From UHGV virus genome UHGV-0468246: a stretch of 64,000 bases of DNA; one strand, given 5' to 3'. Each line of letters starts with the position of its first letter. The stretch's first letter is position 1. The notes beneath the pieces are model-generated. The model was not told the origin of the DNA, did not search any database, and saw nothing but the letters and a program-made list of their open reading frames with translations. Positions 11,775-46,231 of the stretch are shown here, piece after piece. Both the position numbers and the translations under genes were made by a program. This DNA is from a virus.

Positions 11775-11849
11775 TGGCACCCCCGGTAGGAATCGAACCT
11801 ACGACCTGATTCTTAGGAGGAATCTGCCCTTCCGCTGGGCTACGGGGGT
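11775..11849 (-). tRNA. tRNA-Arg (anticodon CCT)
   Basis: Cloverleaf: acceptor ACCCCCG/CGGGGGT, U8 A9, D arm GCCC-AGCGGAAG-GGGC, anticodon arm GATTC-CTCCTAA-GAATC, T arm GTAGG-TTCGATT-CCTAC, discriminator G and an encoded CCA. Confidence 0.85.
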
Positions 11850-12156: not shown

Positions 12157-12167
12157 TGGCTTCAGTC

Positions 12168-12245
12168 CGGGAGGGCGGGAATCGAACCCGCACATGCTGT
12201 ACCTGTTATGGCGCGCCCAGTGCTCTGCCGTTGAGCTACCTCCCG
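12168..12245 (-). ncRNA. tRNA-like element with acceptor stem, D arm and T arm but no canonical anticodon stem
   Basis: CGGGAGG/CCTCCCG acceptor pairing, TA at positions 8-9, D arm GCTC-AACGGCA-GAGC, T arm GCGGG-TTCGATT-CCCGC. The ~30 nt in between (containing the GGCGCGCC palindrome) cannot form a 5-7-5 anticodon arm by my reading. CCA is not encoded. Confidence 0.4.
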
Positions 12246-12426
12246 ATGCATGGGAAGCGCCGGAGGAAGGTGCAATGCGCACCGTTCGGGCGCTTCCCAA
12301 GTTCGCTGCGGGTGCCCTCGCCGTCCGCAGTCAGGATGCCCACCGATGATGACTTTCGGCATCCTCCCTCGCCCCTCTGCGCGGCCCGTTCGCAGCGGCC
12401 CGTGCTCGGAACCCGCGTTCGGGAAA

Positions 12427-12756: not shown

Positions 12757-12831
12757 TGGTACGGGGTGCAGGTGTCGAACCTGCGGCCAAGGAATTATGA
12801 GTTCCCTGCTCTACCGTTGAGCTAACCCCGC
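12757..12831 (-). tRNA. tRNA-Met (anticodon CAT; initiator, elongator or Ile2 cannot be told apart by eye)
   Basis: Acceptor GCGGGGT/ACCCCGT with a G1-U72 wobble, U8 A9, D arm GCTC-AACGGTA-GAGC, anticodon arm GGGAA-CTCATAA-TTCCT, T arm GCAGG-TTCGACA-CCTGC, discriminator A, CCA encoded. Confidence 0.85.
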
Positions 12832-12995: not shown

Positions 12996-13409
12996 TCAAC
13001 TTTCTGCCAAGCACATCGCGAGCGTGCAAGATGTTCTCTCTCGACCGGTGCACCATTCAAGGTTCTCGACAGCGTTGTTGGCCTTGTCGCCGTCGATGTG
13101 GTTCACTTGCGGCTTGCCATCGTCGTTCGGTATGAACGCCTCTGCGACAAGCCTGTGGATGCACTTTGTTTCCGTTGCGCCCATGTTGCTCAACAGAACA
13201 AGATGGTATCCGTATGTGTTCACTCGGTCGGCAAGAATCTTTTCCGATTGCATGCGATGGAGGCTTCCATCCGCCCTGTAAATAGGGCGTTCGAGACTTT
13301 TGACGCGACCGCAACTGGATATTTGATAGCACCCTTCGCAGCCTGCTATGCCGCGCCATTCCTCCATCGCATGCACCTTCTCCACCTTGCGTTGCCTCGC
13401 AACGGGCAT
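12996..13409 (-). CDS. HNH homing endonuclease (NUMOD4 plus HNH_3 type)
   Basis: EWRGIAGCEGCYQISSCGRVKSL matches a NUMOD4 motif and VNHIDGDKANNAVENLEW matches an HNH motif. Gene GC is ~52%, below the genome, and it lies next to the tRNA genes. Confidence 0.8.
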   Translation of the reverse strand: MPVARQRKVEKVHAMEEWRGIAGCEGCYQISSCGRVKSLERPIYRADGSLHRMQSEKILADRVNTYGYHLVLLSNMGATETKCIHRLVAEAFIPNDDGKPQVNHIDGDKANNAVENLEWCTGRERTSCTLAMCLAES

Positions 13410-21415: not shown

Positions 21416-21853
21416 TCCACCGTTCCTCTCCCTCGCGGCCTTTGCGCGAATCTCGGCGTACATGCGCTCCTCGTCCTCGCGCAGTATGCGGTAGGCGAGC
21501 CGCAGCTGTTCGAGGTCGAAGTAGCCGAAATGGCACTCCTCGACGGGTATGCCCATCCTGCCCGCCAGCCATTCGTACTGGCGCGTACGCTCCTTGCGCT
21601 TGTTCGGAGCGCCCAGCCACCGCCTGTCGAACAGCCGGTGGCAGAACTGCTTGCCGAGCCTCATGCGGTCGTCGGCCAGAAGCCCGAACGCCTCCTTCGG
21701 CCTCGGCACGTGCGTCCCGACGTACGCGCCGCACTCCGTGCAGCGGTAGCACCACCCGCTGCCGCGCTTGATGCCGTACACCTTCCTGTTGGGCACGTAC
21801 TCGACGCGCCCGCCGCACAGGTTGCACACGGTCGGCCTCTTCGGCGGAATCAT
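21407..21853 (-). CDS. Hypothetical zinc-finger protein (148 aa)
   Basis: CNLCGG...CYRCTECGAY motif. Confidence 0.45.
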   Translation of the reverse strand: MIPPKRPTVCNLCGGRVEYVPNRKVYGIKRGSGWCYRCTECGAYVGTHVPRPKEAFGLLADDRMRLGKQFCHRLFDRRWLGAPNKRKERTRQYEWLAGRMGIPVEECHFGYFDLEQLRLAYRILREDEERMYAEIRAKAARERNGGRI

Positions 21854-22650
21854 GCGCCAAGCTCCTTCCTGAACGCGCGGGATACCGCCTCGAACAGTAT
21901 GCCGTCGAGGAGCGCGTCCACGCTCTCGTCCGTTCTAAGGCCCCGTTCCTCGCAGAACGCGTCCGCCTTCGAGGAGATGCGCCTGCACGCCTCCTGCGCC
22001 GTCTCCGTGGCCTCTGCGGCGGTCATGCCGTCCCCGTCCCTCTTCACGCGAAGCAGCTCCGGGTGTCCCGACATGTCCAAGCACTCGCCGTAGGGCGCTC
22101 CCGCGACGTATCGGTCGATCATGATGTCGAGGCGCAGGATGTGGGAGAGCTGCTTCGGGTCGTAGCCGTAGCGCTCTATCCAAGGCATGCGGCTCGGGTA
22201 CTCGTGCGTGAGCGCGTTCAGCTTCTCGTGCGCCATGCCCTTCATGCACTTGACCGCCCGACCGGGGCAGTAGCGCGCGATCTCCTCGCGGCGGCGCAGC
22301 AGCTCCATCCACAGGTCGGCGTAGTCGTGGTTGAACAGGTGCCACTCCGTGAACAGAATCTCAACGAAGTTCACGTTCTGCTTGCGGAACGTCTTGAAGT
22401 ACTCGCGGATGTCCTTCACGTCGCAGTGCTCGCCGTTGCCCATCACGTGGGTGCGGCTCACCGCCTGACGGTTCAGCACGACATCCTCGAAGCATGGCAG
22501 CACCAGCAGCTTGCTGTCGATGTCGCTGCCCTCGTCGGAAAGCCCGTAGTTCTGCGAGCCTTGCAGGCAGATGGCGAACCAGTCGCCGCGCGCGTTTTTT
22601 TTAGATTCCTCCAAGTGCTCCGCGAGCCTCGCCGTCGGCAGGTCTTCCAT
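21850..22650 (-). CDS. Nucleotidyltransferase-fold protein (266 aa)
   Basis: GSQNYGLSDEGSDIDSKLLV fits the GS...D.D motif of DNA polymerase beta-type nucleotidyltransferases. Confidence 0.5.
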   Translation of the reverse strand: MEDLPTARLAEHLEESKKNARGDWFAICLQGSQNYGLSDEGSDIDSKLLVLPCFEDVVLNRQAVSRTHVMGNGEHCDVKDIREYFKTFRKQNVNFVEILFTEWHLFNHDYADLWMELLRRREEIARYCPGRAVKCMKGMAHEKLNALTHEYPSRMPWIERYGYDPKQLSHILRLDIMIDRYVAGAPYGECLDMSGHPELLRVKRDGDGMTAAEATETAQEACRRISSKADAFCEERGLRTDESVDALLDGILFEAVSRAFRKELGA

Positions 22651-22828
22651 ACTCTCTCCTCCTATCGTTCCAGAAGCGGACGGCGCGCTCGGGGTCGTTC
22701 AGGAAGCCCGTCTGGTTGCCGCACGCCTTGCAGCGCACGAACCACCTTGGCGGCTCCGTCCGGCCCGTCGCGTAGAGCGCCGCGCCGCCGCCGCATCCGC
22801 ATCGCTCTATTCTACTGGTAGATGTCAT
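22601..22828 (-). CDS. Lar-family restriction alleviation protein (75 aa)
   Basis: RCGCGGGAALY...WFVRCKACGNQTGF...AVRFWNDRR matches the Lar zinc-ribbon pattern. Confidence 0.6.
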   Translation of the reverse strand: MTSTSRIERCGCGGGAALYATGRTEPPRWFVRCKACGNQTGFLNDPERAVRFWNDRRREYGRPADGEARGALGGI

Positions 22829-23741
22829 AGTTCTCGCAGATTTCGCTCCAATTTTGGATAAGCCCCTGATAGCCGTCGCGCAGGTCGCGCAGCGTGCCCT
22901 TCTCCTCGTTCTCGCGCATCAGCACGTCGCGGTACAGCTCCTCGTCCCGGTACATCCGGACGTTCTCGTCTATGAGGCGGCTGATGACGCTGGGGTCGAG
23001 CGCGTCAAGCTCCCAGCATTCGTAGCCGAACCGCTCGATGTAGCCCTGCGCGCGGCTGTCCGACAGCTTCGTCGGGTTCGGCGGAGGCCCGAACTCCTCG
23101 ATCTGGTCGAGGTTCAGCGCGAGGCGGCGGAACTCAACGTCGTCGGCACTGAACAGCTCCAAGCGCGCCACGATGTCGCGGCTCATGTCCTTGCCGCTGG
23201 GGTCGTGGTCGCCGAGGTGCAGCAGCACCGCGTGCTGCCCAGCGTCGCAGCGCCGCTTCAGGCGCATGGCCGCTCCCCACAGCTCGCTCTGGCTGGTGTA
23301 GCCACGGCACGAGAAGCACGCAACGTCCAGCTTGTCGCTGATCTGCTCCACGATGCCTATGAGCGCGTCCTTCTCCACCCACACCTCGACGTAGTTCTCC
23401 TGCCCCTCCCAGTAGTCGATGTGGTACTGGCGGGCTATCGCGTCGATGATCTCCTGCGGCTCCTCCCAGTGCGGGCGGCGGCGCAGGTTGCGCGTGCGGT
23501 CTTCGATGGCGTGCCAATCGACGAGGCCCGCCAAGCGCGCGTCGTTGATGAGGTTGCCGAGGTTCTTGTAGCTGCGGATGTTGTTCGGGATGATGTCGCG
23601 CGACACCATCTGGTAGTAGAGCTGGCGCAGCGTCAGGCCGTACCCCTGCGCCTCGTACTCGGCCACTATGCCGTTGGCTATGCCGATGAGTTCCAGCTTG
23701 TCGTCGCGGAACGTCTTCTCGATGTACGCTATCTTAGGCAT
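22812..23741 (-). CDS. Spo11 / topoisomerase VI subunit A-like protein (mini-A, 309 aa): CAP tyrosine motif plus Toprim
   Basis: LRQLYYQMVS matches the R(D/Q)(I/L)YY catalytic-tyrosine motif. VEVWVEKDALIGIV carries the Toprim glutamate (vvEKd). HLGDHDPSG matches the Toprim DxDPxG motif. It overlaps the stop of the upstream GHKL gene by 8 nt. Confidence 0.6.
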   Translation of the reverse strand: MPKIAYIEKTFRDDKLELIGIANGIVAEYEAQGYGLTLRQLYYQMVSRDIIPNNIRSYKNLGNLINDARLAGLVDWHAIEDRTRNLRRRPHWEEPQEIIDAIARQYHIDYWEGQENYVEVWVEKDALIGIVEQISDKLDVACFSCRGYTSQSELWGAAMRLKRRCDAGQHAVLLHLGDHDPSGKDMSRDIVARLELFSADDVEFRRLALNLDQIEEFGPPPNPTKLSDSRAQGYIERFGYECWELDALDPSVISRLIDENVRMYRDEELYRDVLMRENEEKGTLRDLRDGYQGLIQNWSEICENYDIYQ

Positions 23742-24948
23742 CCTCGCCCTCCTTCTCCAAAAGCCCGTCTATCTCGTCGCGTATGAGGTGCATGCCGAAG
23801 AACCGCAGGTCGTCCGAGTTGTCGATGATCTCGCGAAGCTCGGCGCGCGCACGCTTCGACAGGCGCGGCTGCCCTTTGAGCCAGACGAGAATCTTCTTGT
23901 AGTCGCTCTTGCCGAAGGCGTTGACTGCGGCCTCCCTGCTGGCGTTCGACGACACCTTCGCCTCCAAGTCCTCGAACTCGTCGAGCGCGTCGTCGGCGAT
24001 GGCGATTATCTTGGAGACGATCTTGCTCTCCTCGTGGAACGCGCTCGCCTCGGCGCTGCCGCCGAGAACCTGCCACATGCCCTTCGTCCCGACGAACGTG
24101 CCCTCGTCAAGCCCGTTCTTCTCGAAGTAGTAGCGCTTGAAGCCCTCGCACTGGTCTTCGTCTATCTCGTCGAGGACGGCGCTTGCGTCGGACACGTCCA
24201 GATGCTTCTCGCCGAGCGAGTTGACGAGCAGGCTCACGTCCCCGCACGACGTGAGGGCGCGGGCCGTAAGCTCCTTCAGCTCGTAGTGGTTGATCGCCTT
24301 GCGGTCTCGGTCGAGGCTCACGTGCTCCGGCAGGAAGTCGTAGCCGTACGCGAAGCCGGTGTCCTCCTGCACGAACAGGCCGCCGACGTAGAACTTGCCC
24401 TTGTAGCGGCTCTCCAACATGATCGTCCCGTACTCGCTCTCGCGCTTCGCGCCGATGTCGCGGCCCATGAAGCGTTCGAGGGCTATGAACCTGTCCCCGA
24501 AGGAGCGCATCATGGCGGGCGAGATGCCGCCGATGCGGAACTCCGTGAACTCGCCGCCCGGAACGCCGGTCTCCTCCACGTCGATCTGCAACGATTCCTC
24601 GCCGAACGTCTCGGACAGGCGGAACTCCGGTGTCCAAGTCTCCGCGTCGGTGACGACCTTCACCGGCTTGCGCTCGCGCGTCAGCACCAGAAGCGCCAGC
24701 TTGTATCCCTCGCCGTACTTCCCGATGTAGCGCTCGTCGTCCTTGCCCGATTCGCCGAGCAGGAGCGTCGATGTCTTCAGTCGCGCGCCGTCGGTGAGGA
24801 TGGACAGCGTTTCGCGGTCGTACGACACGGACACCTCCGCCCCGTCCGCCTTCTGGTCGATGGCGTTCTGCAAAATCTCGCGGACTGCCTCCTCCACGCC
24901 CCAGCCGCTCACGTACTTGGGCGACAGGCTCAACTCGATGGTCTTCAT
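23734..24948 (-). CDS. GHKL (Bergerat-fold) ATPase, topoisomerase VI subunit B-like (404 aa)
   Basis: N-box EILQNAIDQ and G2 box IGKYGEGYKLAL. Lies immediately upstream of, and translationally overlapping, the Top6A-like gene. Preceded by ribosome-binding site, palindrome, -10-like box, AT-motif and terminator. Confidence 0.55.
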   Translation of the reverse strand: MKTIELSLSPKYVSGWGVEEAVREILQNAIDQKADGAEVSVSYDRETLSILTDGARLKTSTLLLGESGKDDERYIGKYGEGYKLALLVLTRERKPVKVVTDAETWTPEFRLSETFGEESLQIDVEETGVPGGEFTEFRIGGISPAMMRSFGDRFIALERFMGRDIGAKRESEYGTIMLESRYKGKFYVGGLFVQEDTGFAYGYDFLPEHVSLDRDRKAINHYELKELTARALTSCGDVSLLVNSLGEKHLDVSDASAVLDEIDEDQCEGFKRYYFEKNGLDEGTFVGTKGMWQVLGGSAEASAFHEESKIVSKIIAIADDALDEFEDLEAKVSSNASREAAVNAFGKSDYKKILVWLKGQPRLSKRARAELREIIDNSDDLRFFGMHLIRDEIDGLLEKEGEDA

Positions 24949-24962
24949 GGCCCTCCTTGCTC

Positions 24963-24978
24963 TCGATTAAATAATCGG
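24963..24978 (-). promoter_or_regulatory. 16-bp palindrome copy 4 (TCGATTAAATAATCGG) between the TGnTAAGAT -10-like box (24988-24998) and the ribosome-binding site of the GHKL gene
   Basis: Read on the minus strand: CCGATTATTTAATCGAGAGCAAGGAGGGCCATG. Confidence 0.6.
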
Positions 24979-25000
24979 CCTTGACCCATCTTACCACAAG

Positions 25001-25050
25001 CCTTAACTCTTGTCTTAACTTTTTCTTTCTTTTTTTATCTTACAAAAGAA
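25001..25050 (-). repeat. AT-rich motif copy, minus orientation, beside the terminator hairpin at 25053-25075
   Basis: Near-identical to the copy at 12087 (CTTAACTCTTGTCTTAACTTTTTCTTTCTTTTTTTATCTTACAAAAGAAA). Confidence 0.6.
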
Positions 25051-25052
25051 AA

Positions 25053-25075
25053 GGGGAGGGCTTGTGGCCCTCCCC
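25053..25075 (-). terminator. Hairpin GGGGAGGGC-ttgt-GGCCCTCCCC with a T-rich tail on the minus strand
   Basis: Stem-loop followed on the minus strand by TTTTCTTTTGT. Confidence 0.55.
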
Positions 25076-25076
25076 G

Positions 25077-25407
25077 TCACCACGCCGTCTGCCTGCGGAA
25101 CGGGCATCTCGTCCGAGAGCACGACTTCCTCGCCACCTCGACGGCGCAGCACGTGTTCGCCTGATCTCCGCACATAGGGGACGCCACGTGCCAGCCGGGG
25201 CCTAGAACCGTTTCGGCCAGCCGGTCGAGGGCGGCCTGCGCGTCGGTCGGCTGCGGCATGATGCCGTAGTCCCCGCCGTTGCCGGTCGCCCCGCTTTCGT
25301 CAACGAACGAGAGCGTGATCTGATACCCTCTGTTTATGTTGTCCATCTGCTGGTCGAAGTCCTTCTTCTCCATCTTGGTCGGGAACTTCGCCTCCATGCT
25401 CCCGCAT
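25077..25407 (-). CDS. Hypothetical protein (~110 aa, MEAKFPTKMEKK...)
   Basis: C-terminal part of the track ORF 25077..25616 from its first plausible ATG. Confidence 0.4.
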
Positions 25408-25414
25408 GCCGCCG

Positions 25415-26118
25415 TCACCCTTCGCATGCCCCTCCTATCTCCTCCAACGTCCTGCGCTTCATGTTGCCAAGCACCTCCTCCATGGCGACGAGCCGCCGCC
25501 AGCAGTCTGGCAGGTTCTCCTTGATCGCGCGCAGTTCCTTCTGGTTCTTGTTCTTGCAGCACCAGCACGACACCCTGTCCAAGATGTCGTACAGGCGCAC
25601 GCCGTCCTGCTCCCACTCATGGCCGTGGGCGTAGCACGCGGCGAGGCAGTCGGCCTCGCGCATGCCCCAGTCAGCGAGCGGGAAGCGCTTGTAGGGCTTG
25701 CGCTCCTTTTCGAGGCGCGCCGTCTCGTCTGCGGCTATGCCGACGTACACGGTCGCCCCCCCCAGCTCCCTCTCCGCATGGCGGTCTATCGCCCGCAGCT
25801 TCTCGGTCGTGCCCCAGCGGCACGGGCCGCCGCACCAGCCGTAGCCGTGCTTGTGGACTTCGCCGGTCTTCCGGCTTTTGACCGGGCGGCAGAACATGCT
25901 CCACCAGAACGGGTCTTTGGGGCGCAGCTCGACGTAGCGGATGCCGTTCTCGCGCAGCAGCGGCAGCATGCGGTCGCGCTCGGCGTAGATCGCGTCGAAC
26001 TCCATGCCCGTGTCGTAGAAGACAACCTCGTCGAGCGGCATGCCGCGCTCGATCAGGCCGTGCAGCATGGCGAGGCTGTCCTTGCCCCAGCTGACGCTTG
26101 CGATGCAGCGCTTCATGG
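25415..26118 (-). CDS. PAPS reductase / PP-loop ATP pyrophosphatase family protein (~234 aa)
   Basis: Probable start MKRCIASVSWGKDSLAM. The SWGKDS motif matches the PP-loop SGGKDS, followed by a CWCC cysteine cluster. An internal G8 tract (plus C8 at 25756-25763) encodes LGGAT. Confidence 0.65.
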
Positions 26119-26279
26119 CTACCCTTCCCTCTCGTCGGCGCGCCTGCGCCTCGCGGCCCTCTTGTCCTGCTCGGCCTTGCACTCCGGGCCGCAGTATTTC
26201 TGGTTGCGGGAGTTCTTCGCGAACGTCCTCCCGCACACCGGGCACGTCCCCGTGCCGCGCGCCTTCCAACCGGTCATCC
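26119..26279 (-). CDS. Small zinc-ribbon protein (~53 aa, MTGWKARGTGTCPVCGR...)
   Basis: C-terminal part of the track ORF 26119..26559. Confidence 0.35.
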
Positions 26280-26657
26280 CTCGCTCCTCTCCCTCGGCAT
26301 CCCTCCACGGTAAAGCCCCGCCTCCTTCAGTCGGCGCAGGGCGAGCCGCTGCCTCGCGTTGCACCGCCCTAGGGCGCAGTCGTTCCACACGGCCACGCAC
26401 CGGGTCATCTCGCACAGAGCGTCCATGCACCCGCAGGCGGGCAGCACGTCCCACGCCTGACCCTGCTCGACGAAGCCGCGCAGGCGCATCAGCTTGCGGA
26501 CGAGCCATTCCTGATGCGACGGGACGGCGTAGTGCGGCGTTCCTCCCTCGTCGATGCACACCTCCAAGTAGTTCACGAAGGTCGCCTTGTGCGTCTCGAT
26601 GTCGAAGGGGGAGCGCAGCACGCGCTGCTGCTCCGACGCTCCGGGGAGGCTACTCAT
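26274..26657 (-). CDS. Hypothetical protein (127 aa)
   Basis: ORF. Confidence 0.45.
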   Translation of the reverse strand: MSSLPGASEQQRVLRSPFDIETHKATFVNYLEVCIDEGGTPHYAVPSHQEWLVRKLMRLRGFVEQGQAWDVLPACGCMDALCEMTRCVAVWNDCALGRCNARQRLALRRLKEAGLYRGGMPRERSEG

Positions 26658-27075
26658 CGTCCGTCTCCGTGGTCATCCAGTCCTCGACGCTGCCAAGCTC
26701 GTCTGCGGCGCACAGGATGCGCGCGAAGGGGTACTCCGGCACCTCCATGTCGCCAGCCGCCTCCAAGCCGATCACGTCGTTCAGGAGGTCGTTCGCCTCC
26801 GTGACGGCGGCGCGCCAGTCCTTCTGCGCATCGACGCTCCCGTAGGTCGCCTCGAAGATGTCGGGCTTCACGGGGTACAGCTCCCCCTTGATGCCCTTCA
26901 CGATGTAGTCGCCCTTGCGCGCCGTCATGCTCCCTTCGAGCGTGCGCACCTTCGCCTCGCCGTCCGGGGTCAGGCGCAGAACGCCGCTCTCGAACGCGAC
27001 GTGCCCCCACTCCGGGGTCGCCTCCTCGCCGTAGCGCCACGCCTCGATCTCCAACGGCTTCTTCCTGTACCTCAT
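26650..27075 (-). CDS. Hypothetical protein (~141 aa, MRYRKKPLEIEAWRYG...)
   Basis: ORF. Confidence 0.4.
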   Translation of the reverse strand: MRYRKKPLEIEAWRYGEEATPEWGHVAFESGVLRLTPDGEAKVRTLEGSMTARKGDYIVKGIKGELYPVKPDIFEATYGSVDAQKDWRAAVTEANDLLNDVIGLEAAGDMEVPEYPFARILCAADELGSVEDWMTTETDDE

Positions 27076-27323
27076 CGCCCCTCCTCGTTTTCGCACTCGT
27101 CGCATCTGTCGCTCGTCGGCTCGTAGTCTCTTATCCCCAAGTCGAGCCAGTCGCGCAAGATGCGCAGCTTGCGCGTGTCGGGTTCCTCGGGGATGACGGC
27201 CTCGTAGCGGCCTCTCTCGTCTTCCAGCTCAATTCTCGGCATGTCGGCGCTCCTCTCAATCAGTCTCGTACCGCTTGATGTCCTCGCGCCAGCGCAGCTC
27301 GTCTCCGAACCCAACGCCTTCAA
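27072..27323 (-). CDS. Hypothetical protein (83 aa)
   Basis: ORF. Confidence 0.35.
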   Translation of the reverse strand: MKALGSETSCAGARTSSGTRLIERSADMPRIELEDERGRYEAVIPEEPDTRKLRILRDWLDLGIRDYEPTSDRCDECENEEGR

Positions 27324-27477
27324 GCTCGCCCGTGGAGACCACGCGCCCCTCGTCGTCCAGAGGGTACAGCGCCGTGTTGCCGTCGAACAGCGACACGACG
27401 GCTATGCGGTGCTTCAGCGTGAGGGCGGTCAGGTCTTCGAGGAACGCCGCAGCGTCCCTCGCGTCAGTCGTCCCCAT
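27256..27477 (-). CDS. Hypothetical protein (73 aa)
   Basis: ORF. Confidence 0.35.
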   Translation of the reverse strand: MGTTDARDAAAFLEDLTALTLKHRIAVVSLFDGNTALYPLDDEGRVVSTGELEGVGFGDELRWREDIKRYETD

Positions 27478-27757
27478 CGCAGCCGCCCTTCGGCTCGTCG
27501 AGCGCGGCCTGCGCGTCGCGCAGAGCGTCGGCGACCATGCGCCCCATGCGCCTAGCCCAGCAGAACAGCAGGAAGGCGCACAGCACGAGGAACGAGGCGT
27601 AGCACAGGAAGCCCCATGCCGCCCCGAACATCACGCCAGCGCCTATGGAGCCTACCAGCCCCGCAGCTCCGAACAGCAGGCCTCCCAGCAGCCACGAGCA
27701 GCCGATCAGCGCGTCCCCGTCCTTGTCGCTCTTGCTCACGTCGAACTCCATCCTCAT
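27464..27757 (-). CDS. Small membrane protein (97 aa, two predicted transmembrane segments)
   Basis: Two hydrophobic stretches: LIGCSWLLGGLLFGAAGLVGSIGAGVMFGAAWGFLCYASFLVLCAFLLF. Confidence 0.45.
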   Translation of the reverse strand: MRMEFDVSKSDKDGDALIGCSWLLGGLLFGAAGLVGSIGAGVMFGAAWGFLCYASFLVLCAFLLFCWARRMGRMVADALRDAQAALDEPKGGCDGDD

Positions 27758-28221
27758 CGCTCGCCCTCCGGCTCCGTCGGAAGCTCAATCCACCTCTTGC
27801 AGTTCTCCACGTTCTGGGAGAACGACAGCAGCACGTCGTCCCAGCCCTCCCCGTCGGGCGGAGGGCCGAAGCTGCAAGACACCCCGGTCTCGTGCCTCTC
27901 CCCCGTGATCGTCATGACGTAGGACAGGCGCGGCTCCTCCGCCCCGTCGCGCTTCAGCACGTCGAAGGCGTACTCGATGCCTATGGGCGTTCCAAGCCTC
28001 GCCTCCTCGCGCACCTTGGCGCGCATGCGCTCGACGACGGCCACGAACTCGTCCGGCACCCCCGCCTCGCGCATCTCCTTCTTCCACGCCCTCGGCCCCG
28101 GCTCAACGCCGGGGACGTACCGCTGCATGCTGACCGGCCCTTCCATCACAGCCCCTTCCTGTGCTCGTCGTCGAGGCGCGCGTACTCCCTGCGCTCCTTC
28201 TGCGTCGATGCGCGCAGGCAC
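27754..28221 (-). CDS. Hypothetical protein (155 aa or shorter)
   Basis: ORF. Confidence 0.4.
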   Translation of the reverse strand: MPARIDAEGAQGVRAPRRRAQEGAVMEGPVSMQRYVPGVEPGPRAWKKEMREAGVPDEFVAVVERMRAKVREEARLGTPIGIEYAFDVLKRDGAEEPRLSYVMTITGERHETGVSCSFGPPPDGEGWDDVLLSFSQNVENCKRWIELPTEPEGER

Positions 28222-28493
28222 GCCTCGGCCTCCTCGTCCGACACGTCGAGGCCGATGCCGTCGGGCGTGCGGAGCACGATGCGGCGCAGCCCGTTCTTCA
28301 ACGTGTACTTCATGTAGACCTTGACCGGCGTTCCCTCCGGCGTGACCACGGGCGCGCCGTCCTCCCCGTAGGTGGTCAGGTCGCAGTCGAGGGCGTAGAC
28401 GCTCCCCATGCGCTTAGTCATCGGCCCCTCCGATCTCCGCGTAGCAGCCGGGCCGCCAGCGCTCGCCCTCCACGTCCTCGGGCAGCGGCGCAA
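28146..28493 (-). CDS. Hypothetical protein (115 aa or shorter; likely starts MTKRMGSVYALD)
   Basis: ORF. Confidence 0.4.
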   Translation of the reverse strand: MRRCPRTWRASAGGPAATRRSEGPMTKRMGSVYALDCDLTTYGEDGAPVVTPEGTPVKVYMKYTLKNGLRRIVLRTPDGIGLDVSDEEAEACLRASTQKERREYARLDDEHRKGL

Positions 28494-28908
28494 CGGGGCG
28501 GATGTGCCCGTGCGAGACGTGCAACATGTCGCAGCGGTTGCCCAGCGGCTTCAGCTCCTCCATGGCGCGAAGGGCGCGCCGCACGGTCTCCGGCAGCTTG
28601 CGCGCGTCGTCGCGCACGCCGACCGAGATGCGCAGGGAGCGACCGTCGAACGGCACGCTTTCGTACGGGCAGACGGCCCTGCCGCATGACAGCTGCGCGC
28701 AGAACTCGACCGTCGTGCGCATCTCCTCGCCCTCGATCTCCCCGGACGTGTTGCCGTAAAGAAGGTAGCCGCCGATCTTGCCGTTGCCCTTCGCCTCGCG
28801 CAGCATGTTCGAGCAGCGGCGCACGGCATCGACGCTCTCGTCGTCGTCGATGCCGAACGCCTCCAAGAAGCGCTTGGCCTCCTTCAGCTCCTTGCCGTTG
28901 CCTCTCAC
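28414..28908 (-). CDS. Hypothetical protein (~164 aa, GTG start)
   Basis: AAAGGAG ribosome-binding site plus GTG at 28908, directly downstream of palindrome copy 5 (28924-28939). Confidence 0.45.
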   Translation of the reverse strand: MRGNGKELKEAKRFLEAFGIDDDESVDAVRRCSNMLREAKGNGKIGGYLLYGNTSGEIEGEEMRTTVEFCAQLSCGRAVCPYESVPFDGRSLRISVGVRDDARKLPETVRRALRAMEELKPLGNRCDMLHVSHGHIRPVAPLPEDVEGERWRPGCYAEIGGADD

Positions 28909-39688: not shown

Positions 39689-39704
39689 TCGATTAAATAA
39701 TCGG
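39689..39704 (-). promoter_or_regulatory. 16-bp palindrome copy 8 upstream of the G9 tract and the dnaE start
   Basis: Read on the minus strand: CCGATTATTTAATCGAGAGACATGGATAGGGGGGGGGCACGGAATG. Confidence 0.55.
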
Positions 39705-39739
39705 GAGGGACTTCGCAGCCCCTCCCTAGAACGCGTCTG

Positions 39740-41092
39740 CTAAAAAGGGATATCCTCGTCGTAGACGGAAGCGCCGACGCTACCGGCAGCGTCAGTCCAC
39801 GGCACCGTAGCAGCCGGTTGCTGCGGCGCGGCCTGCGCGGGCTGCGGCGCGGGCTGGACTGGCTGCGGCTGCATGGGCTGCGAGCCGACCGGCTGCGGCA
39901 TGTACGCGCTTTGCACGGGTGCCGCTGCGGGCTGCTGTGGAGCCGTCTGCGGGGCGTACTGCTGCTGGGAGGGCATCGGTGCGGGCTGGGACGCAACCGG
40001 AGCCGCAGGGGCGCTCTGAACGCCTTGCGGGGCCATCGGGGGCTGCATGGGCACGGAAGCCGGAGCCTGCGCGAACTGCTGCGGCGCGGCCTGCGCGGGC
40101 TGCGAGAACTGCTGCGTCGGAGCGGCGTACCCCGGCTGCACGGGCGCTCCGTAGGCGGCTGCGGGCTGGGCGGCTGCTGCGAGCGTGCTCTGGGCGGCAC
40201 CGGCGAGCGTCGAGGGCGCATAGCCCGGAACCGCACCGTCTTCCGGCGTGAAGCCGGGGACGTAGATTCCCTTGCTCGTGTAGTACTGCGGCGTGCCCTT
40301 GAAGGAAACGTGCTCCGCGAGGGTGCGCGTCATGTACGGACGGTAGCGCTCGATGTCCACCACTTCGGCGGGGCGCTGAATCTTGGTCACGACGTAGGTG
40401 CGCATGTCGCTGCGGTACACCTCGTAGTCGTAGTACGTGATCGGGTCGCAGAAGTCGTCGTCCTTGCTGGTGAGCTGCGCCCAGAAGTTGGAGTACGCCT
40501 GATCGACGATCACGACGTTCGGCACCATCGCGCCGTTGCGCTCCACCATCTCGTCCTCGATGCTCACGATCTGCTCGACCGGCATGCCGCGCCCGTCGGT
40601 TCCGCGCTCGCGGTTCACCTTGCGGATGACGGCGTAGGCGCACATGCGGTCTTGCGGGACGTTGGCCCCCATGTACTTCGTGCCGTCGCGCTTCGTCTTC
40701 TCGACCTGCGTCTGGCACAGGGGGCACGCGTAGGGCTGGTTGTTGTCGATGTCGTCGAGGCACAGGACGTAGCCCCCGTTCGGGATGTAATGGAAGCCGC
40801 CGCCGCGCACGCCCTCCTTCACCGTGATAACGTCGGTGTCCGCGAAGGGGCGCTGGCAGATGGGGCACACGGGGTTCTGCCCCGTCTGCTCCTTCGTGCG
40901 GTTCCACATGTCCTGCGGAATCTCGATGTTGCACGAGCATCCGACCGACGCGTGGTTGACCACCACGTTGTCCACCATCGGGGACAGGAAGCGCAGCACC
41001 GCGCTCGAACCTATGTCCAGCTTGAAATAGCCGTAGCCCGAAGAACCCTTGTTCTCCGCGTTCTGCGCAAGGCGCTCTACCAATGAACTCAT
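39740..41092 (-). CDS. Atypical single-stranded DNA-binding protein: Cys-rich zinc-ribbon N-domain, long Pro/Gln/Ala-rich linker, C-terminal DEDIPF tail
   Basis: The C-terminal ...SVYDEDIPF matches the SSB acidic tip (DDDIPF). The ~170-aa low-complexity PQA-rich linker is SSB-like. The N-domain carries CPICQ and CPLCQ motifs rather than an obvious canonical OB signature. Confidence 0.55.
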   Translation of the reverse strand: MSSLVERLAQNAENKGSSGYGYFKLDIGSSAVLRFLSPMVDNVVVNHASVGCSCNIEIPQDMWNRTKEQTGQNPVCPICQRPFADTDVITVKEGVRGGGFHYIPNGGYVLCLDDIDNNQPYACPLCQTQVEKTKRDGTKYMGANVPQDRMCAYAVIRKVNRERGTDGRGMPVEQIVSIEDEMVERNGAMVPNVVIVDQAYSNFWAQLTSKDDDFCDPITYYDYEVYRSDMRTYVVTKIQRPAEVVDIERYRPYMTRTLAEHVSFKGTPQYYTSKGIYVPGFTPEDGAVPGYAPSTLAGAAQSTLAAAAQPAAAYGAPVQPGYAAPTQQFSQPAQAAPQQFAQAPASVPMQPPMAPQGVQSAPAAPVASQPAPMPSQQQYAPQTAPQQPAAAPVQSAYMPQPVGSQPMQPQPVQPAPQPAQAAPQQPAATVPWTDAAGSVGASVYDEDIPF

Positions 41093-42902: not shown

Positions 42903-42945
42903 GTTAAAGAAAAAGTAAAGCAAGAATTAAGACAATAATGAAGAT
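42903..42945 (+). repeat. AT-rich motif copy, plus orientation
   Basis: GTTAAAGAAAAAGTAAAGCAAGAATTAAGACAATAATGAAG. Confidence 0.5.
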
Positions 42946-45296
42946 TATCGGATGGTGCGCGGGTTGCCGTTGTCGTCCCTCATGAGGTCGATGAGGGCTT
43001 GGTACTTCAGCTCCCATCGCAGCTTGTAGCCCATCCTCCCGTAACGTCGGGTCTTCAGCGTGACGAGCTTCATCACGCTTATGTTCTCCTCCTCCTCGGT
43101 GCACCCCAGCGCCCAGATAACGTCCGCAAGCTGCTCGACAACCGACGAGTGCGCGATGTCCTGCGCGGTGCCTATGCCGTCCTTCGCGTTCTTAACGCCC
43201 TCTCGCGTCATCTGGTGGAGCAGCAGCACCGGCATCTTCTGGTTGTCCGAAGGCGACGCTATGAGGTTCTTCAGCGTGTAGATGCAGTCAGCCGTCTGCT
43301 CGTAAAGCGACTGAATCTTCGGGTTCTTCTTCACGAACTGAAGCTGGTCGATCACGACGAAGTTGCATCCGCACATCTTGGCGTTCTGGATGAGGGCGCT
43401 CGGCGTGCGCTCCGGCATGGGAGGCTGGTCGATGACGAGCTTTCCGGGCAGGCCGCCTATCTCGTCGCGCGCCCTGTCGAGGGCCTGAACGTAGCGCGGC
43501 ATCTCGATGCCCTTCAGGAACTTATCGACGGGAACCACGATCTGATCGCGGTTGACGTGCAGAAGCTCCGTGCGCCGCCCGATGTCGTAGGGGTCTAGCT
43601 CCAAGCTGGCGAAGTAGACGTTCCACCCTTGCCGCGCCGCCTCCAAGGCGGTCTTGGCGGCGAACCACGTGTTGTGCGTCACGATGTAATCGTCCGTCAG
43701 GTAAAGATGCTCCGGGTCGTCAACCATGATGCATTGCATCTCCGTGTCGAAGCCCAAGTCCTCGACATCGACTATCGAGACGTAGCGGTGAAGGAACTTG
43801 CGATTCGCAACGGCATCGTGCGCGCGCTCGCGACATTCGTGCTTGCCGGATGACGTGATGCTTTCGGCGGTCATCACCGACACAACCCATTCGTCCGACT
43901 TACCGGCACGGCGTTTCATTCGCGCCCGCGCGCACATTCCCAGCGAGCGGCACAACGACACGACATCATCAGCAAGCCTCTTTGAAGCCGTCGAGTAGGT
44001 CTTGCCTCCGTTGCCCATCATGCACCCGTCCGTGTCCATAAGGCCGCGAAGCAGGTCAAAACGCTGCTCTGCCGATGCTCCAAGGTAGTCGGCTGGAATG
44101 AACTTCTCATAAGATTTCACGTTCAGCCCAAGATCGACGACCGCGCTTGAAAGCGGGTTCATGTTCCACTTCGGCAGGTACGATATTCCATAAGAGCAGT
44201 TATCGGCGTTGACCTTCTTGACAGCGTAGTCTTCGCCCAGTCTCTCGCAAAGACTGTTCACCACATCGTCCTCGACGCTCGAAAACGCAAGCGAGCCTCC
44301 GGGAACCTGTGATAGGCATCCGTCGCCGATGAGCACGCCGAGCACGTAGGGGTCGATTGGAAGCTCCTTGCGCGACATCTCAACGGCATCATTGACCGGC
44401 ACCCTCCAACGATACGCCTTGCCGCTCATCAGGCCACGCGCGATCATCTCGCCGAGCGTCATGGTGCGCTCCGAAACGCAAGGAATGCCGTTCGCCTTCG
44501 TCTTGTACGCCGTCGTCCACAAATGGTCGATGCAGCAATCGGCATGTCGCCCGTCGGCAAGATGCACCCGGTACGCACGCTTTTTGCCCTGCGGGTACAC
44601 TCCTATAACCCGTGCAAGCGTGCCTCGGCGCGTTCGCACCTTGTCGCCTACGCGAATCTCGCCCATCGGCTTGAACCCATGCTCCGTGAGAACCTTCGAG
44701 TAAAGCGGCTGGGCCTTGCCCTTGCCCGTCGGGGCGACGAGAACCGCAAGCTCGCCGGGCTTGATGCCGCCCGTCTCCACGTTCAGCTCCTCGAAGGGGT
44801 ACGGCGCGCCGACCTCGGCCAGCTTCGCGTTCGCCATCTTCTTGTACAGCTCCATGCTCTCGCCGTCGCCGTACACGATCTTCTGCTGCCTCGGCGTTAC
44901 GTTGTCAACGATCACGGACAGGGTGTCGCGCAGCATCTTCACCTTCTGCTCCGCGTCAAGCCCCATGTTCTCAACGCCCATGCGCAGCGCGTCGGTAAGC
45001 TGGAACTCGCAGTACTGGTCTTTGAGCTTCTTCGACAGGTACGACGGCGCGGCACCTGCCGCCCCCTGCGTCAGCGCGTCGTAGTCGGGGAACCGCTCGC
45101 GCAGCACGTCGAGCGTGGGCGCTCCCCTCATGGCCGCGAAGTTCAGGAAGTAGTCGCTGGCGAAGCTGTACATCTCCGCCATCTTCGGGTCGGCGAACTG
45201 CGACGCGTCGATGCCCGACTGGTAGTAGACCATGAGGGCGTTCGGGTCGGTCAAGGTCGCGGCGATCTCCGTCTCTACGTCGAGGGCCATTACCAT
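42945..45296 (-). CDS. dnaB: DnaB-family replicative helicase interrupted by an intein
   Basis: Start MVMALDVE (ATG at 45296). The first ~210 aa of the track ORF 42945..45926 are an Arg-rich shadow of the upstream gene. Joining VLVAPTGKGK to TWFAAKTALE restores a Walker A GKGKT. Confidence 0.8.
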   Translation of the reverse strand: MVMALDVETEIAATLTDPNALMVYYQSGIDASQFADPKMAEMYSFASDYFLNFAAMRGAPTLDVLRERFPDYDALTQGAAGAAPSYLSKKLKDQYCEFQLTDALRMGVENMGLDAEQKVKMLRDTLSVIVDNVTPRQQKIVYGDGESMELYKKMANAKLAEVGAPYPFEELNVETGGIKPGELAVLVAPTGKGKAQPLYSKVLTEHGFKPMGEIRVGDKVRTRRGTLARVIGVYPQGKKRAYRVHLADGRHADCCIDHLWTTAYKTKANGIPCVSERTMTLGEMIARGLMSGKAYRWRVPVNDAVEMSRKELPIDPYVLGVLIGDGCLSQVPGGSLAFSSVEDDVVNSLCERLGEDYAVKKVNADNCSYGISYLPKWNMNPLSSAVVDLGLNVKSYEKFIPADYLGASAEQRFDLLRGLMDTDGCMMGNGGKTYSTASKRLADDVVSLCRSLGMCARARMKRRAGKSDEWVVSVMTAESITSSGKHECRERAHDAVANRKFLHRYVSIVDVEDLGFDTEMQCIMVDDPEHLYLTDDYIVTHNTWFAAKTALEAARQGWNVYFASLELDPYDIGRRTELLHVNRDQIVVPVDKFLKGIEMPRYVQALDRARDEIGGLPGKLVIDQPPMPERTPSALIQNAKMCGCNFVVIDQLQFVKKNPKIQSLYEQTADCIYTLKNLIASPSDNQKMPVLLLHQMTREGVKNAKDGIGTAQDIAHSSVVEQLADVIWALGCTEEEENISVMKLVTLKTRRYGRMGYKLRWELKYQALIDLMRDDNGNPRTIR
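43659..44714 (-). mobile_element. Intein (~352 aa) in the DnaB P-loop with a LAGLIDADG homing-endonuclease domain
   Basis: Begins with Ala (AQPLYSKVLTEHG...) right after GKGK. Contains LGVLIGDGC and LLRGLMDTDGC LAGLIDADG-like motifs. Ends ...YIVTHN followed by Thr. Confidence 0.7.
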
Positions 45297-46231
45297 ATCC
45301 TCCCGCCGCGTCGGCGCTCGCGCGCTTTCTCGCGCATGTCCTCGCCGTCCACGCGCACGAGGTCGAAGCTCTCCGTGAACAACGATAGGACGTACTTGTT
45401 GTAGGCGGTCTCCAACCCCGAAGGGCACGACAGGTTCGTCGTGACGATGGTGGGCCGCGACTGCTGCGTGCGCACGCGCAGAAGGTTCTCGATCTGCCCT
45501 ATGGCGTAGTCGGTGCCCTTCGCGCCGAAGCCTCCCTCTATCTCCTTGCCGAGGTCGTCTAGGACGAGGACGCGGGCAGCGTCTATCTTGCGCTTGTACC
45601 ACTTCGCGTACTTCGCGTTGTTCCACCCCCGCTTCGTGTTCTCGATGTAGTCCTTGGCCGTGGTCATGTAGCACTCGATGCCGCGCCGCACGGCCTCCTT
45701 CAGGGCGAAGGAGGCGAGCATCGTCTTCCCCGTGCCAGCCTTGCCGAACATGACGAACCCGCGCCCTTCGAGCATGTTCACGTCGAGCGCGTCGATGTAT
45801 CCCTTCACGAACGCCTGCGCGTTCCGGTCTCCGAAATAGTCGTTCCAGTTCAAGCGCTGGTAGGTGAGGCCGATGCCCGCGTTCAGGTAGTGCTTGTAAC
45901 GCTGTAGCTGGTCGGCGCAGTTGCACCGCATCAGCGCGCCGTCAACGACCACCGTGCCGTCCACCCCCTCGCCGCAGTTCTTCATGCAGGTGGGGCAGAA
46001 GTACAGGTGGCTCGCTCCGAGGTCGGGGTAAACCTCGTACAGCTCGTCAGCGTCGTCCTGCGACAGCGCCATGTCCACGAGGGCCGAATCTTCGAGCCTC
46101 CCCGTCACATCCATAGGTTCTCCTTGCCCTCGTCCGCCTTCAGCTCCGTCAGCGCAAGATCGGTGAGCCACCGGAATCGCTTCGAGAACATTTCCTTGCC
46201 AACGGGGTTCCCGCGGTTGCGCCCCTTCCAC
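45290..46231 (-). CDS. DnaC / IstB-like AAA+ helicase loader
   Basis: Walker A FGKAGTGKT, Walker B VLVLDDLG, TTNL motif. Its stop overlaps the dnaB start within ATGGTAATGG. Confidence 0.7.
   Translation of the reverse strand: MEGAQPREPRWQGNVLEAIPVAHRSCADGAEGGRGQGEPMDVTGRLEDSALVDMALSQDDADELYEVYPDLGASHLYFCPTCMKNCGEGVDGTVVVDGALMRCNCADQLQRYKHYLNAGIGLTYQRLNWNDYFGDRNAQAFVKGYIDALDVNMLEGRGFVMFGKAGTGKTMLASFALKEAVRRGIECYMTTAKDYIENTKRGWNNAKYAKWYKRKIDAARVLVLDDLGKEIEGGFGAKGTDYAIGQIENLLRVRTQQSRPTIVTTNLSCPSGLETAYNKYVLSLFTESFDLVRVDGEDMREKARERRRGGRIW

Follow-up and report, generated by a model that had tools for sequence, protein, structure and literature searches.

Class 3 inteins are defined by a signature of Trp at B:12, Cys at F:4 and Thr at G:5 (Tori et al. 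2010, PMC2807308), and the KlbA Ala1 inteins (class 2) lie outside this Trp-Cys-Thr triplet group (PMC2807308). Their splicing depends on an obligate Cys nucleophile in block F, where a branched intermediate forms, once again in class 3. The class 3 prototype, the MP-Be DnaB intein of mycobacteriophage Bethlehem (PMC2807308), is by description phage-borne, 341 aa long and equipped with a LAGLIDADG domain, with a non-nucleophilic first residue (Pro1, preceded by Gln-1), Trp67, Cys320, Thr339 and Thr+1. The Cys at F:4 was shown to be obligatory in Msm DnaBi1 and in the Mle DnaB homologue. As long as Cys F:4 has not been mutated, an intein that bears the class 3 signature might in principle still splice by the class 2 route (PMC5222942), so the signature alone is no proof of the class 3 route. 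Grafting the triplet onto gp41-1 gave no productive splicing (PMC7664689); the triplet is thus necessary but not sufficient. [quoted passage not shown]

The window, a stretch of 64,000 nucleotides from the virus genome UHGV-0468246, is ~99% identical to Eggerthella phage LE2-3, an isolated phage whose recorded host is E. lenta DSM 2243. It encodes a DnaB-like replicative helicase (Table 1) of 783 aa when read from the ATG at 45296 (MVMALD), or of 781 aa from the Met at 45290, the start used by GenBank and by metagenome gene callers. The P-loop of this helicase very probably holds, at the classic site, a class 3 intein with a LAGLIDADG homing endonuclease. LE2-3 carries the intein-bearing allele; its counterpart in GenBank MW679026.1, LE23_120, is 99.9% identical to the precursor and is labelled only 'DNA helicase'. 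In the assembly collection, 1108 indexed blocks contain this 781-aa precursor without change, and the intein-bearing allele is the common one in metagenomes. Literature searches on Eggerthella with LE2-3 and with intein found nothing. The intein in the LE2-3-type helicase is real, unannotated and an ordinary member of a well-described kind.

Table 1. Positions of the helicase, the intein and other features in the window (counts are of the 76 aligned homologues)
Feature	Position	Strand	Evidence or remark
DnaB-like replicative helicase precursor ORF	42945..45296	-	ORF list and translation; Pfam DnaB_C
N-extein, 194 aa, ending in Walker A APTGKGK (44715..44735)	44715..45296	-	100% identical to N-terminal part of intein-less allele P0121
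Intein, 348 aa, Ala1-Asn348, 1044 nt	43671..44714	-	exact block absent from L003 and L004
Splicing block A (AQPLYSKVLTEHG), non-nucleophilic Ala1	44676..44714	-	aligns with N-termini of gp41-1 and MchDnaB1
Splicing block B (GRHADCCIDHLWTT)	44511..44552	-	aligns with HQW of class 3 inteins 6rix and 6bs8
His64 (B:10)	44523-44525	-	76/76
Trp66 (B:12)	44517-44519	-	72/76
LAGLIDADG homing endonuclease domain, ~intein residues 96-310	43785..44429	-	Pfam LAGLIDADG_3 E 1.7e-9, Hom_end
LAGLIDADG motif 1, YVLGVLIGDGC, Asp131	44316..44348	-	Asp131 75/76
Lys204, conserved	44103-44105	-	72/76
LAGLIDADG motif 2, LLRGLMDTDGC, Asp229	44022..44054	-	Asp229 75/76
Splicing block F (EMQCIMVDDPEHLYLTD)	43692..43742	-	aligns with catalytic Cys of MchDnaB1 and Msm DnaBi1, PVRCVEVDNPEHLYL
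Cys328 (F:4), predicted initiating nucleophile	43731-43733	-	76/76
Splicing block G (DYIVTHN): Thr346 (G:5), His347, Asn348	43671..43691	-	each 76/76; aligns with PTHN of 6rix and 6bs8
C-extein, 241 aa, starting with Thr+1 (43668-43670)	42948..43670	-	
Helicase stop codon	42945-42947	-	
NUMOD4 and HNH_3 ORF	12996..13409	-	domain match
tRNA-Met	12757..12831		

The insert (AQPLYSK...YIVTHN) splits the Walker A motif in frame between Lys and Thr, APTGKGK|T. The ORF had been judged ~350 aa too long, with a P-loop restored by removal of the excess; taking out the 348 aa in silico does give VAPTGKGK|TWFAAKT. The spliced product scores 63.2 bits against DnaB_C vs 41.4 bits for the precursor and covers profile positions 3-251 contiguously. 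Two Logan metagenome contigs (L003 and L004), 99.2-99.7% identical to the window across >20 kb, differ from it at the helicase by one clean gap of 1044 nt that coincides with the intein. They encode a 433-aa helicase (P0121) that agrees at every residue (100%) with the extein spliced in silico, a match that fixes the intein boundaries at Ala1 and at Asn348 with Thr+1. The junction in the intein-less allele is GGCAAG|ACGTGG, that is GK|TW, in the context GGCAAGGGCAAG|ACGTGGTTCGCC. Intein-plus and intein-minus alleles thus coexist in genomes that are otherwise 99.2-99.7% identical. The span first proposed for the element, 43659-44714, was exact at its start; its end ran 12 nt, four codons (TWFA), into the C-extein. 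Between the window and the empty-site contigs, the SNPs closest to the insertion lie 273 nt upstream and 1276 nt downstream. This SNP-free zone is not taken as evidence of a co-conversion tract, since SNPs are clustered elsewhere too and the only two empty-site contigs share their SNP pattern.

Over its full length, the splicing domain can be aligned with two experimentally characterised mycobacterial class 3 DnaB inteins of solved structure, MchDnaB1 (6rix; E 7e-7) and Msm DnaBi1 (6bs8; E 4e-5). The Trp-Cys-Thr triplet and the C-terminal His-Asn of Msm DnaBi1 and MchDnaB1 (6rix/6riy) are in register with those of the present intein. Among the aligned homologues, Lys-1 is invariant (76/76), Ala1 is kept in 69/76, Gln2 in 72/76 and Pro3 in 74/76, and none begins with Cys1; position +1 holds Thr in 69/76 and Ser in the other 7/76. 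Directly upstream of the catalytic residues of block B lie Cys60 (B:6) and Cys61 (B:7), found in 68/76 and 47/76 homologues, respectively. In class 2 KlbA inteins, the +1 residue is Cys; here Thr stands at +1 and none of the triplet is missing, which is not the class 2 (KlbA type) pattern. With non-nucleophilic Ala1, the Trp66/Cys328/Thr346 triplet and Thr+1, the element has the features of class 3. The original proposal of 'class 2 or 3' can be narrowed by signature to class 3, on the strength of Trp B:12, Cys F:4, Thr G:5 and Thr+1; class 2 KlbA inteins lack the triplet. The core of that proposal also stands: the empty site, the residues and the homologues agree with an intein that starts at Ala1, carries a LAGLIDADG endonuclease and interrupts the Walker A motif of a phage DnaB-like helicase.

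The AlphaFold2 model of the intein (pLDDT 93.8, pTM 0.92) is matched by Foldseek to PI-SceI (E 2e-17), the TliVMA intein, PI-PfuI and the class 3 mini-inteins 6rix, 6riy and 6bs8; the endonuclease part, a two-lobe alpha-beta-beta-alpha-beta-beta-alpha domain, resembles PI-SceI and I-DmoI in fold. For the two-domain architecture as a whole, PI-SceI, the VMA1 intein of yeast, is the closest structural counterpart. Judged from alignment and model, the insert is a Hint-fold intein with blocks A, B, F and G that carries a two-motif LAGLIDADG homing endonuclease of the PI-SceI type. The motifs picked out initially, LGVLIGDGC (44316..44342) and LLRGLMDTDGC (44022..44054), are indeed present, as is the terminal HN followed by Thr; those containing Asp131 and Asp229 align with the motifs of PI-SceI. 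The LAGLIDADG domain is apparently intact, with the catalytic Asp residues kept in the translation. In a PDB sequence search, the gp41-1 intein was found with E 1e-9 and PI-SceI with E 8e-5. The cyanophage-like helicase split intein gp41-1 is the best sequence match to the N-terminal Hint half, and the present Ala1 aligns with its Cys1. PI-SceI and gp41-1 are both class 1 inteins with Cys1, unlike this one, and gp41-1 is a split mini-intein without endonuclease. A search of the window with the intein (tblastn) for a second copy gave matches at chance level only; of the further intein-like elements of LE2-3, the second and the third, neither falls within the window. The HNH endonuclease noted earlier beside the tRNAs also exists: the NUMOD4 and HNH_3 ORF lies 165 nt from tRNA-Met, and LE2-3 has an HNH nuclease annotated there.

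Msm DnaBi1 shares with the present intein the host family DnaB, the P-loop site, Ala1 and the use of the Walker A +1 Ser/Thr as C-extein nucleophile, the likeness of site being limited to site-b inteins. The +1 residue is Thr here and Ser in Msm DnaBi1, and block B position 7 is Cys61 here, Asp in Msm DnaBi1 and Ser in the Bethlehem intein. The mycobacterial DnaB-b inteins are mini-inteins of ~140 aa that have lost the endonuclease and reside in cellular genomes, and their exteins are only distantly related to this helicase; the present intein has 348 aa, an apparently intact LAGLIDADG domain and a phage host. It is close in size to the Bethlehem intein and differs from it in Ala1 and Lys-1. 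Phage P-loop inteins of PhoH, DnaC-like, RecA-like and terminase proteins belong to the same family, with 33-49% identity over the full 348 aa; they too begin with AQPL..., end in ...VTHN|T and are inserted after GK, and they differ in host protein. Homologous inserts were found in 870 phage records and 482 database proteins. The host proteins of 120 homologues are unrelated P-loop NTPases (PhoH, DnaC-like, DnaB, RecA-like, terminase), and in nearly all 120 the insertion follows G-x4-GK. The nearest relatives (45-49% identity) sit in DnaC/IstB-like ATPases of ~210 aa, not in helicases. The GC3 of the intein is 0.727 vs 0.933 and 0.880 for the exteins and 0.86-0.90 for neighbouring genes. Base composition and the location of the nearest relatives outside helicases suggest that the intein is of foreign origin.

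Generic profiles recognise the element poorly. The Pfam Intein_splicing and Hint models and the generic model of the intein N-terminal splicing region gave no match to the intein, and NCBIfam intein_Cterm reached 14.0 bits, below its cut-off of 15.6. Weak scores of this kind are plausible because the intein lacks Cys1. Of the HMM search for intein blocks suggested in the initial annotation, the generic models stayed below threshold, and blocks A, B, F and G were found by homologue alignment instead. Recognition consequently rests on PDB sequences, homologues and the empty site. The homology of the insert is not a matter of chance, given the Pfam LAGLIDADG_3 match, the gp41-1 and PI-SceI matches and the many homologous inserts. 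The generic models miss the element, and the real helicase would be a protein of ~433 aa and not of 781. The class 3 P-loop intein family AQPL...VTHN|T is probably under-annotated across hundreds of phage genomes.

We infer splicing and its chemical route from the class 3 inteins that have been studied experimentally, and endonuclease activity with homing as well. The active homing elements and the coupling of replication to splicing named in the initial annotation are likewise predictions. Cys328 of block F, aided by His64, Trp66 and Thr346, would attack the Lys(-1)-Ala1 bond and give a branched intermediate with a thioester at block F. The N-extein would then move to the hydroxyl of Thr+1, which is the Walker A Thr and also the predicted second nucleophile. 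Cyclisation of Asn348, assisted by His347, would release the intein, and an O-to-N acyl shift would restore the native GKGK-T P-loop of an active 433-435-aa helicase. The unspliced precursor, its P-loop split, should not bind ATP. An isolated phage and >1000 assembly blocks carry the allele in which the insert divides the P-loop, which supports splicing indirectly. During co-infection, the intein-less allele would be cut near GGCAAG|ACGTGG, either by the excised intein or by its precursor, and repair of the cut allele from the intein-bearing one would copy the element in (homing).

Splicing by a class 2 (KlbA-like) route, in which Thr+1 would attack the N-terminal junction directly with Cys328 assisting only, is very unlikely in our view. 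Class 2 KlbA inteins likewise begin with Ala1, and a class 3 signature is compatible with either route until a mutation test is made (PMC5222942). However, the complete Trp-Cys-Thr triplet is present together with Thr+1, and KlbA inteins stand outside the triplet group; Cys328 is invariant among the homologues, and the residues are in register with those of MchDnaB1 and of Msm DnaBi1, where, as in its Mle homologue, Cys F:4 is obligatory. An origin of the insert as a class 1 intein starting at Ser6, or as a non-splicing domain conserved within this lineage of helicases, is practically negligible. There is a Ser six residues into the insert (AQPLYS), and the initial annotation had allowed for a start there. 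What the empty-site allele lacks is AQPLY...THN to the residue, with GK|T left behind, whereas a start at Ser6 would leave AQPLY within the P-loop; the empty-site GK|TW, and the Ala directly after the invariant Lys in 69/76 homologues, dispose of that start. The proposed comparison with intein-less homologues gave the opposite of a conserved non-splicing domain. Orthologous helicases of 425-442 aa, 36-100% identical (two shorter entries are fragments), are without the insert, those at 36-81% identity included, and P-loop proteins of unrelated kinds carry the element as well.

The element might instead be a decayed or splicing-dead remnant, with the phage helicase non-functional or working as the precursor and the host DnaB used for replication. 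Class 3 intein pseudogenes do exist, for example Arth_1007 (PMC3196547), and one ORF of the LE2-3 record carries a related intein between exteins without a family match. We consider such decay even less likely here than the class 2 route. No catalytic residue of the splicing or endonuclease domain has been lost and the reading frame is uninterrupted, the extein does not differ at all (100% identity) from its intein-less counterpart, and the intein-bearing allele is the one that predominates in metagenomes. The physical split of the P-loop speaks against a precursor that binds ATP and works as such. The genes around the helicase encode the phage's own DnaC-like loader, primase and Pol III alpha, which argues that the phage uses its own helicase. 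A class 3 intein that splices and carries a homing endonuclease thus remains the preferred reading.

The finding raises no new question of principle, as class 3 inteins, their phage and P-loop preference and DnaB P-loop insertions are already established. Oxidative stress reversibly stops splicing of the M. smegmatis intein Msm DnaBi1, inserted at the same point of the P-loop, by way of an intramolecular disulfide formed with its catalytic Cys (PMC6195587). Because Cys60 and Cys61 adjoin the catalytic His64 and Cys328, the present intein could conceivably gate phage replication by redox state instead of being a purely selfish passenger, which we regard as unlikely. If it did, a disulfide could keep the helicase as an inactive precursor in an oxidatively stressed cell, the host being a strict anaerobe, and a benefit, not homing drive alone, would lie behind the near-fixation that the allele with the intein shows in metagenomes. 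The natural pair of intein-plus and intein-minus alleles with identical exteins is a ready system for measuring homing and fitness cost in a gut phage. For a prevalent Eggerthella phage of the human gut, protein splicing would be needed before the replicative helicase can assemble.

In GenBank and in the metagenome gene calls, the helicase begins two codons downstream of the Met used here and has 781 residues. Eggerthella phage LE2-3 (MW679026.1), whose host is E. lenta DSM 2243, carries the gene as LE23_120 ('DNA helicase') at 99.9% identity, all three differences being synonymous. The gene lies between genes for an IstB/DnaC-like ATPase and a DnaG-type primase; a DnaJ-domain protein, DNA polymerase III alpha and RecA are encoded further downstream. 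In the precursor, Pfam places DnaB_C on residues 543-766 only and LAGLIDADG_3 on residues 411-480. After in-silico splicing, the DnaB_C match is contiguous (profile positions 3-251 of 255) and its score rises from 41.4 to 63.2 bits. Searching for orthologues with the spliced 435-aa extein retrieved a 433-aa helicase (P0121) that is 100% identical to it over the whole length. Its gene was found on L003 and L004, both Logan metagenome contigs. Across more than 20 kb the two match the window at 99.2-99.7% identity, and at the helicase locus each shows a single clean gap that removes window 44714..43671, exactly 1044 nt; at the empty site GGCAAGGGCAAG runs straight into ACGTGGTTC, i.e. GKGK/TWF. 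The start at 44714 in the initial annotation is exact; its end at 43659 takes in four C-extein codons (TWFA). Its alternative, a start at Ser6, is excluded, because the empty-site contigs lack exactly the stretch from Ala1 to Asn348. Comparison with intein-less homologues also bears out an intein over a conserved insertion domain, since orthologous helicases have uninterrupted P-loops: PPGKGKTW, PTGKGKSW and APKKGKSW in P0122-P0124 (74-81% identity) and P0126 (56%). Among the listed orthologues down to 27% identity, all are 425-442 aa except P0148 (403 aa) and P0125, which is itself a piece of the intein-bearing allele. The spliced query also aligns without interruption to more distant DnaB-like genes of actinophages.

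Over its N-terminal 70 residues the intein matches gp41-1, a cyanophage-like helicase intein (E 1e-9), with Ala1 opposite gp41-1 Cys1, and residues 185-342 match PI-SceI (E 8e-5). An AlphaFold2 model of GKGK, intein and TWFA, built from an alignment of 76 sequences, has a mean pLDDT of 93.8 and a pTM of 0.92. Foldseek against the PDB ranks PI-SceI top (E 2e-17, TM 0.70), then the TliVMA, PhoVMA and PI-PfuI inteins; sub-domain matches are I-DmoI and the mini-inteins gp41-1, MchDnaB1 and Msm DnaBi1. Both LAGLIDADG motifs, YVLGVLIGDGC and LLRGLMDTDGC, retain the acidic residues Asp131 and Asp229 (each 75 of 76 aligned homologues; Lys204, 72 of 76), and the predicted endonuclease looks intact. Empty site, homology, fold and motifs agree with the intein and LAGLIDADG endonuclease originally proposed in the DnaB P-loop. 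In the suggested HMM search, no generic intein model run on the intein reaches threshold, which probably explains the missing annotation, and the class 3 residues were recovered through the PDB alignment and the 76 homologues.

Class 3 inteins are defined by a non-nucleophilic first residue, co-varying Trp B:12, Cys F:4 and Thr G:5, and Thr or Ser at +1 (Tori et al., PMC2807308); most are found in helicase-like and terminase proteins, within the ATPase P-loop. Judged from its sequence, the phage intein carries the complete signature (Ala1, His64-Leu-Trp66, Cys328, Thr346-His347-Asn348, Thr+1), and the earlier 'class 2 or 3-type' narrows to class 3 on the full Trp/Cys/Thr triplet and Thr+1. A PDB search with just the splicing domain (residues 1-100 fused to 305-348) gives end-to-end matches to two solved class 3 DnaB inteins, MchDnaB1 (PDB 6rix, E 7e-7) and Msm DnaBi1 (PDB 6bs8, E 4e-5). 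DHLW, EMQCIMVDDPEHLYL and VTHN of the phage intein lie in register with AHQW, PVRCVEVDNPEHLYL and PTHN of the mycobacterial inteins. Msm DnaBi1 is an Ala1 class 3 intein in a DnaB P-loop whose +1 Ser is also the P-loop residue that coordinates Mg (PMC6195587); Thr+1 of the phage intein has the same arrangement. [quoted passage not shown] By every sequence-testable criterion the element belongs to class 3, and it is predicted to work like the other members. The signature by itself does not establish the class 3 route, which takes mutation of Cys F:4 to prove; the Trp-Cys-Thr triplet grafted onto gp41-1 is insufficient alone for splicing.

Block B position 7 is Cys in the phage intein, unlike the characterised class 3 examples. 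The Cys60-Cys61 pair directly precedes the catalytic His64, lies outside the published signature and recurs in the aligned homologues (Cys60 in 68 of 76, Cys61 in 47 of 76). The pair may have a bearing on disulfide control of splicing; we regard redox gating through these conserved cysteines, by analogy with Msm DnaBi1, as distinctly improbable.

Homologues of the intein occur in 870 phage records, and 482 database proteins match at E <= 1e-10. In the best 120 of these 482, the element nearly always starts AQPL directly after G-x4-GK and ends VTHN before Thr or Ser, a PhoH subgroup having it after RGR or LPG instead; host proteins (Pfam) include PhoH, IstB/DnaC-like, DnaB, RecA, AAA and terminase. 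Lys-1, His64, Cys328, Thr346, His347, Asn348 and a Thr or Ser at +1 are present in all 76 aligned sequences, Trp66 in 72 and Ala1 in 69. The nearest relatives (45-49% identity) are inserted not in helicases but in AAA+ proteins of ~210 aa whose Walker A and B motifs are DnaC/IstB-like, and the helicase orthologues are without intein; the intein and extein phylogenies are therefore decoupled, as expected of an element moving between P-loop genes. Base composition agrees with such movement (GC3 0.727 in the intein, 0.933 in the N-extein, 0.880 in the C-extein and 0.86-0.90 in the flanking loader and primase genes). The P-loop of the loader gene itself, GKAGTGK/T, is uninterrupted; in other uncultured phages, DnaC-like genes carry the closest relatives at this same site.

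Features of the helicase locus and of the phage genome (window coordinates unless stated; paired MW679026.1 and L002 positions denote the same stretch)
Feature	Coordinates	Strand	Remarks
Helicase ORF	45296..42945	minus	783 aa from Met at 45296
Intein AQPLYSK...YIVTHN	44714..43671	minus	348 aa
Cys60-Cys61	44523-44537		block B positions 6-7
DnaC/IstB-like loader gene	45290-46231	minus	end overlaps helicase start
HNH endonuclease ORF	12996-13409	minus	137 aa; NUMOD4 + HNH_3 (Pfam); free-standing
tRNAs	11775-11849, 12165-12246, 12757-12831	minus	
Segment without counterpart in LE2-3 record	21585-28584		~7.0 kb
Extra gene of L004	L004 8088-8786 (window ~39695-39750)		~700 nt, 203 aa
LE23_82	MW679026.1 59054-60673 = L002 30466-32085		outside window
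Intein in LE23_82	L002 30748-31821		outside window
LE23_71	MW679026.1 45222-48335 = L002 16634-19747		1037 aa; outside window

The HNH endonuclease noted beside the tRNAs was confirmed, 165 nt from tRNA-Met. For the middle tRNA, ARAGORN gives 'tRNA-???' and an anticodon of four bases, cgcc; in the LE2-3 record, tRNA-Cys and tRNA-Met are among the features listed at this place. LE23_82, annotated 'PhoH family protein', is interrupted by a second class 3 intein, which belongs to the family of the helicase intein (33% identity; GK/AQPLSE...EHLW...CRCILV...IVTHN/T). The PhoH name probably derives from the intein alone, because the spliced exteins (181 aa) have no Pfam family match and no proper G-x4-GK motif. 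LE23_71, annotated 'tRNA synthetase', has sub-threshold Hint, Hom_end_hint and Intein_splicing matches and also matches the DnaB intein in a LAGLIDADG-like region (E 5e-4); it probably represents a third intein in this phage genome, one of another type. The extra gene of L004, one of the two intein-less contigs, has a 450-aa ORF on one side and DNA polymerase III alpha on the other, has no Pfam match on record and is missing from the window and L003, a further small indel polymorphism of the replication module. The segment without counterpart in LE2-3 falls exactly at the junction of record positions 111961 and 1 ('circular') and is phage-like in composition. The record may lack it, since metagenome contigs of the same phage are 117-118 kb as compared to 112 kb for the record.

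The splicing route is most likely that of the Bethlehem, Msm, Mle and Mch inteins, by analogy. Cys328 would attack the Lys(-1)-Ala1 bond to give the block F thioester branch, the N-extein would then be transferred to Thr+1, Asn348 would cyclise and an acyl shift would restore GKGKT. With its Walker A motif split, the precursor should be inactive as an ATPase, so splicing should be a precondition of helicase activity and hence of phage replication. In the assembly collection, 1108 blocks index the exact 781-aa precursor, with contigs reaching ~118 kb; only two contigs were found to carry the empty allele. LE2-3 has been isolated, its host is on record and it encodes its own loader, primase and polymerase, which together with the 1108 blocks suggests that the predicted splicing works. 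A literature search for an intein in an Eggerthella phage found no mention. The phage intein is new and unannotated, of the already known class 3 kind, and is unlikely to surprise a specialist; it is useful for annotation. The two alleles in near-identical genomes fit a predicted homing element close to fixation and are a natural pair for homing studies.
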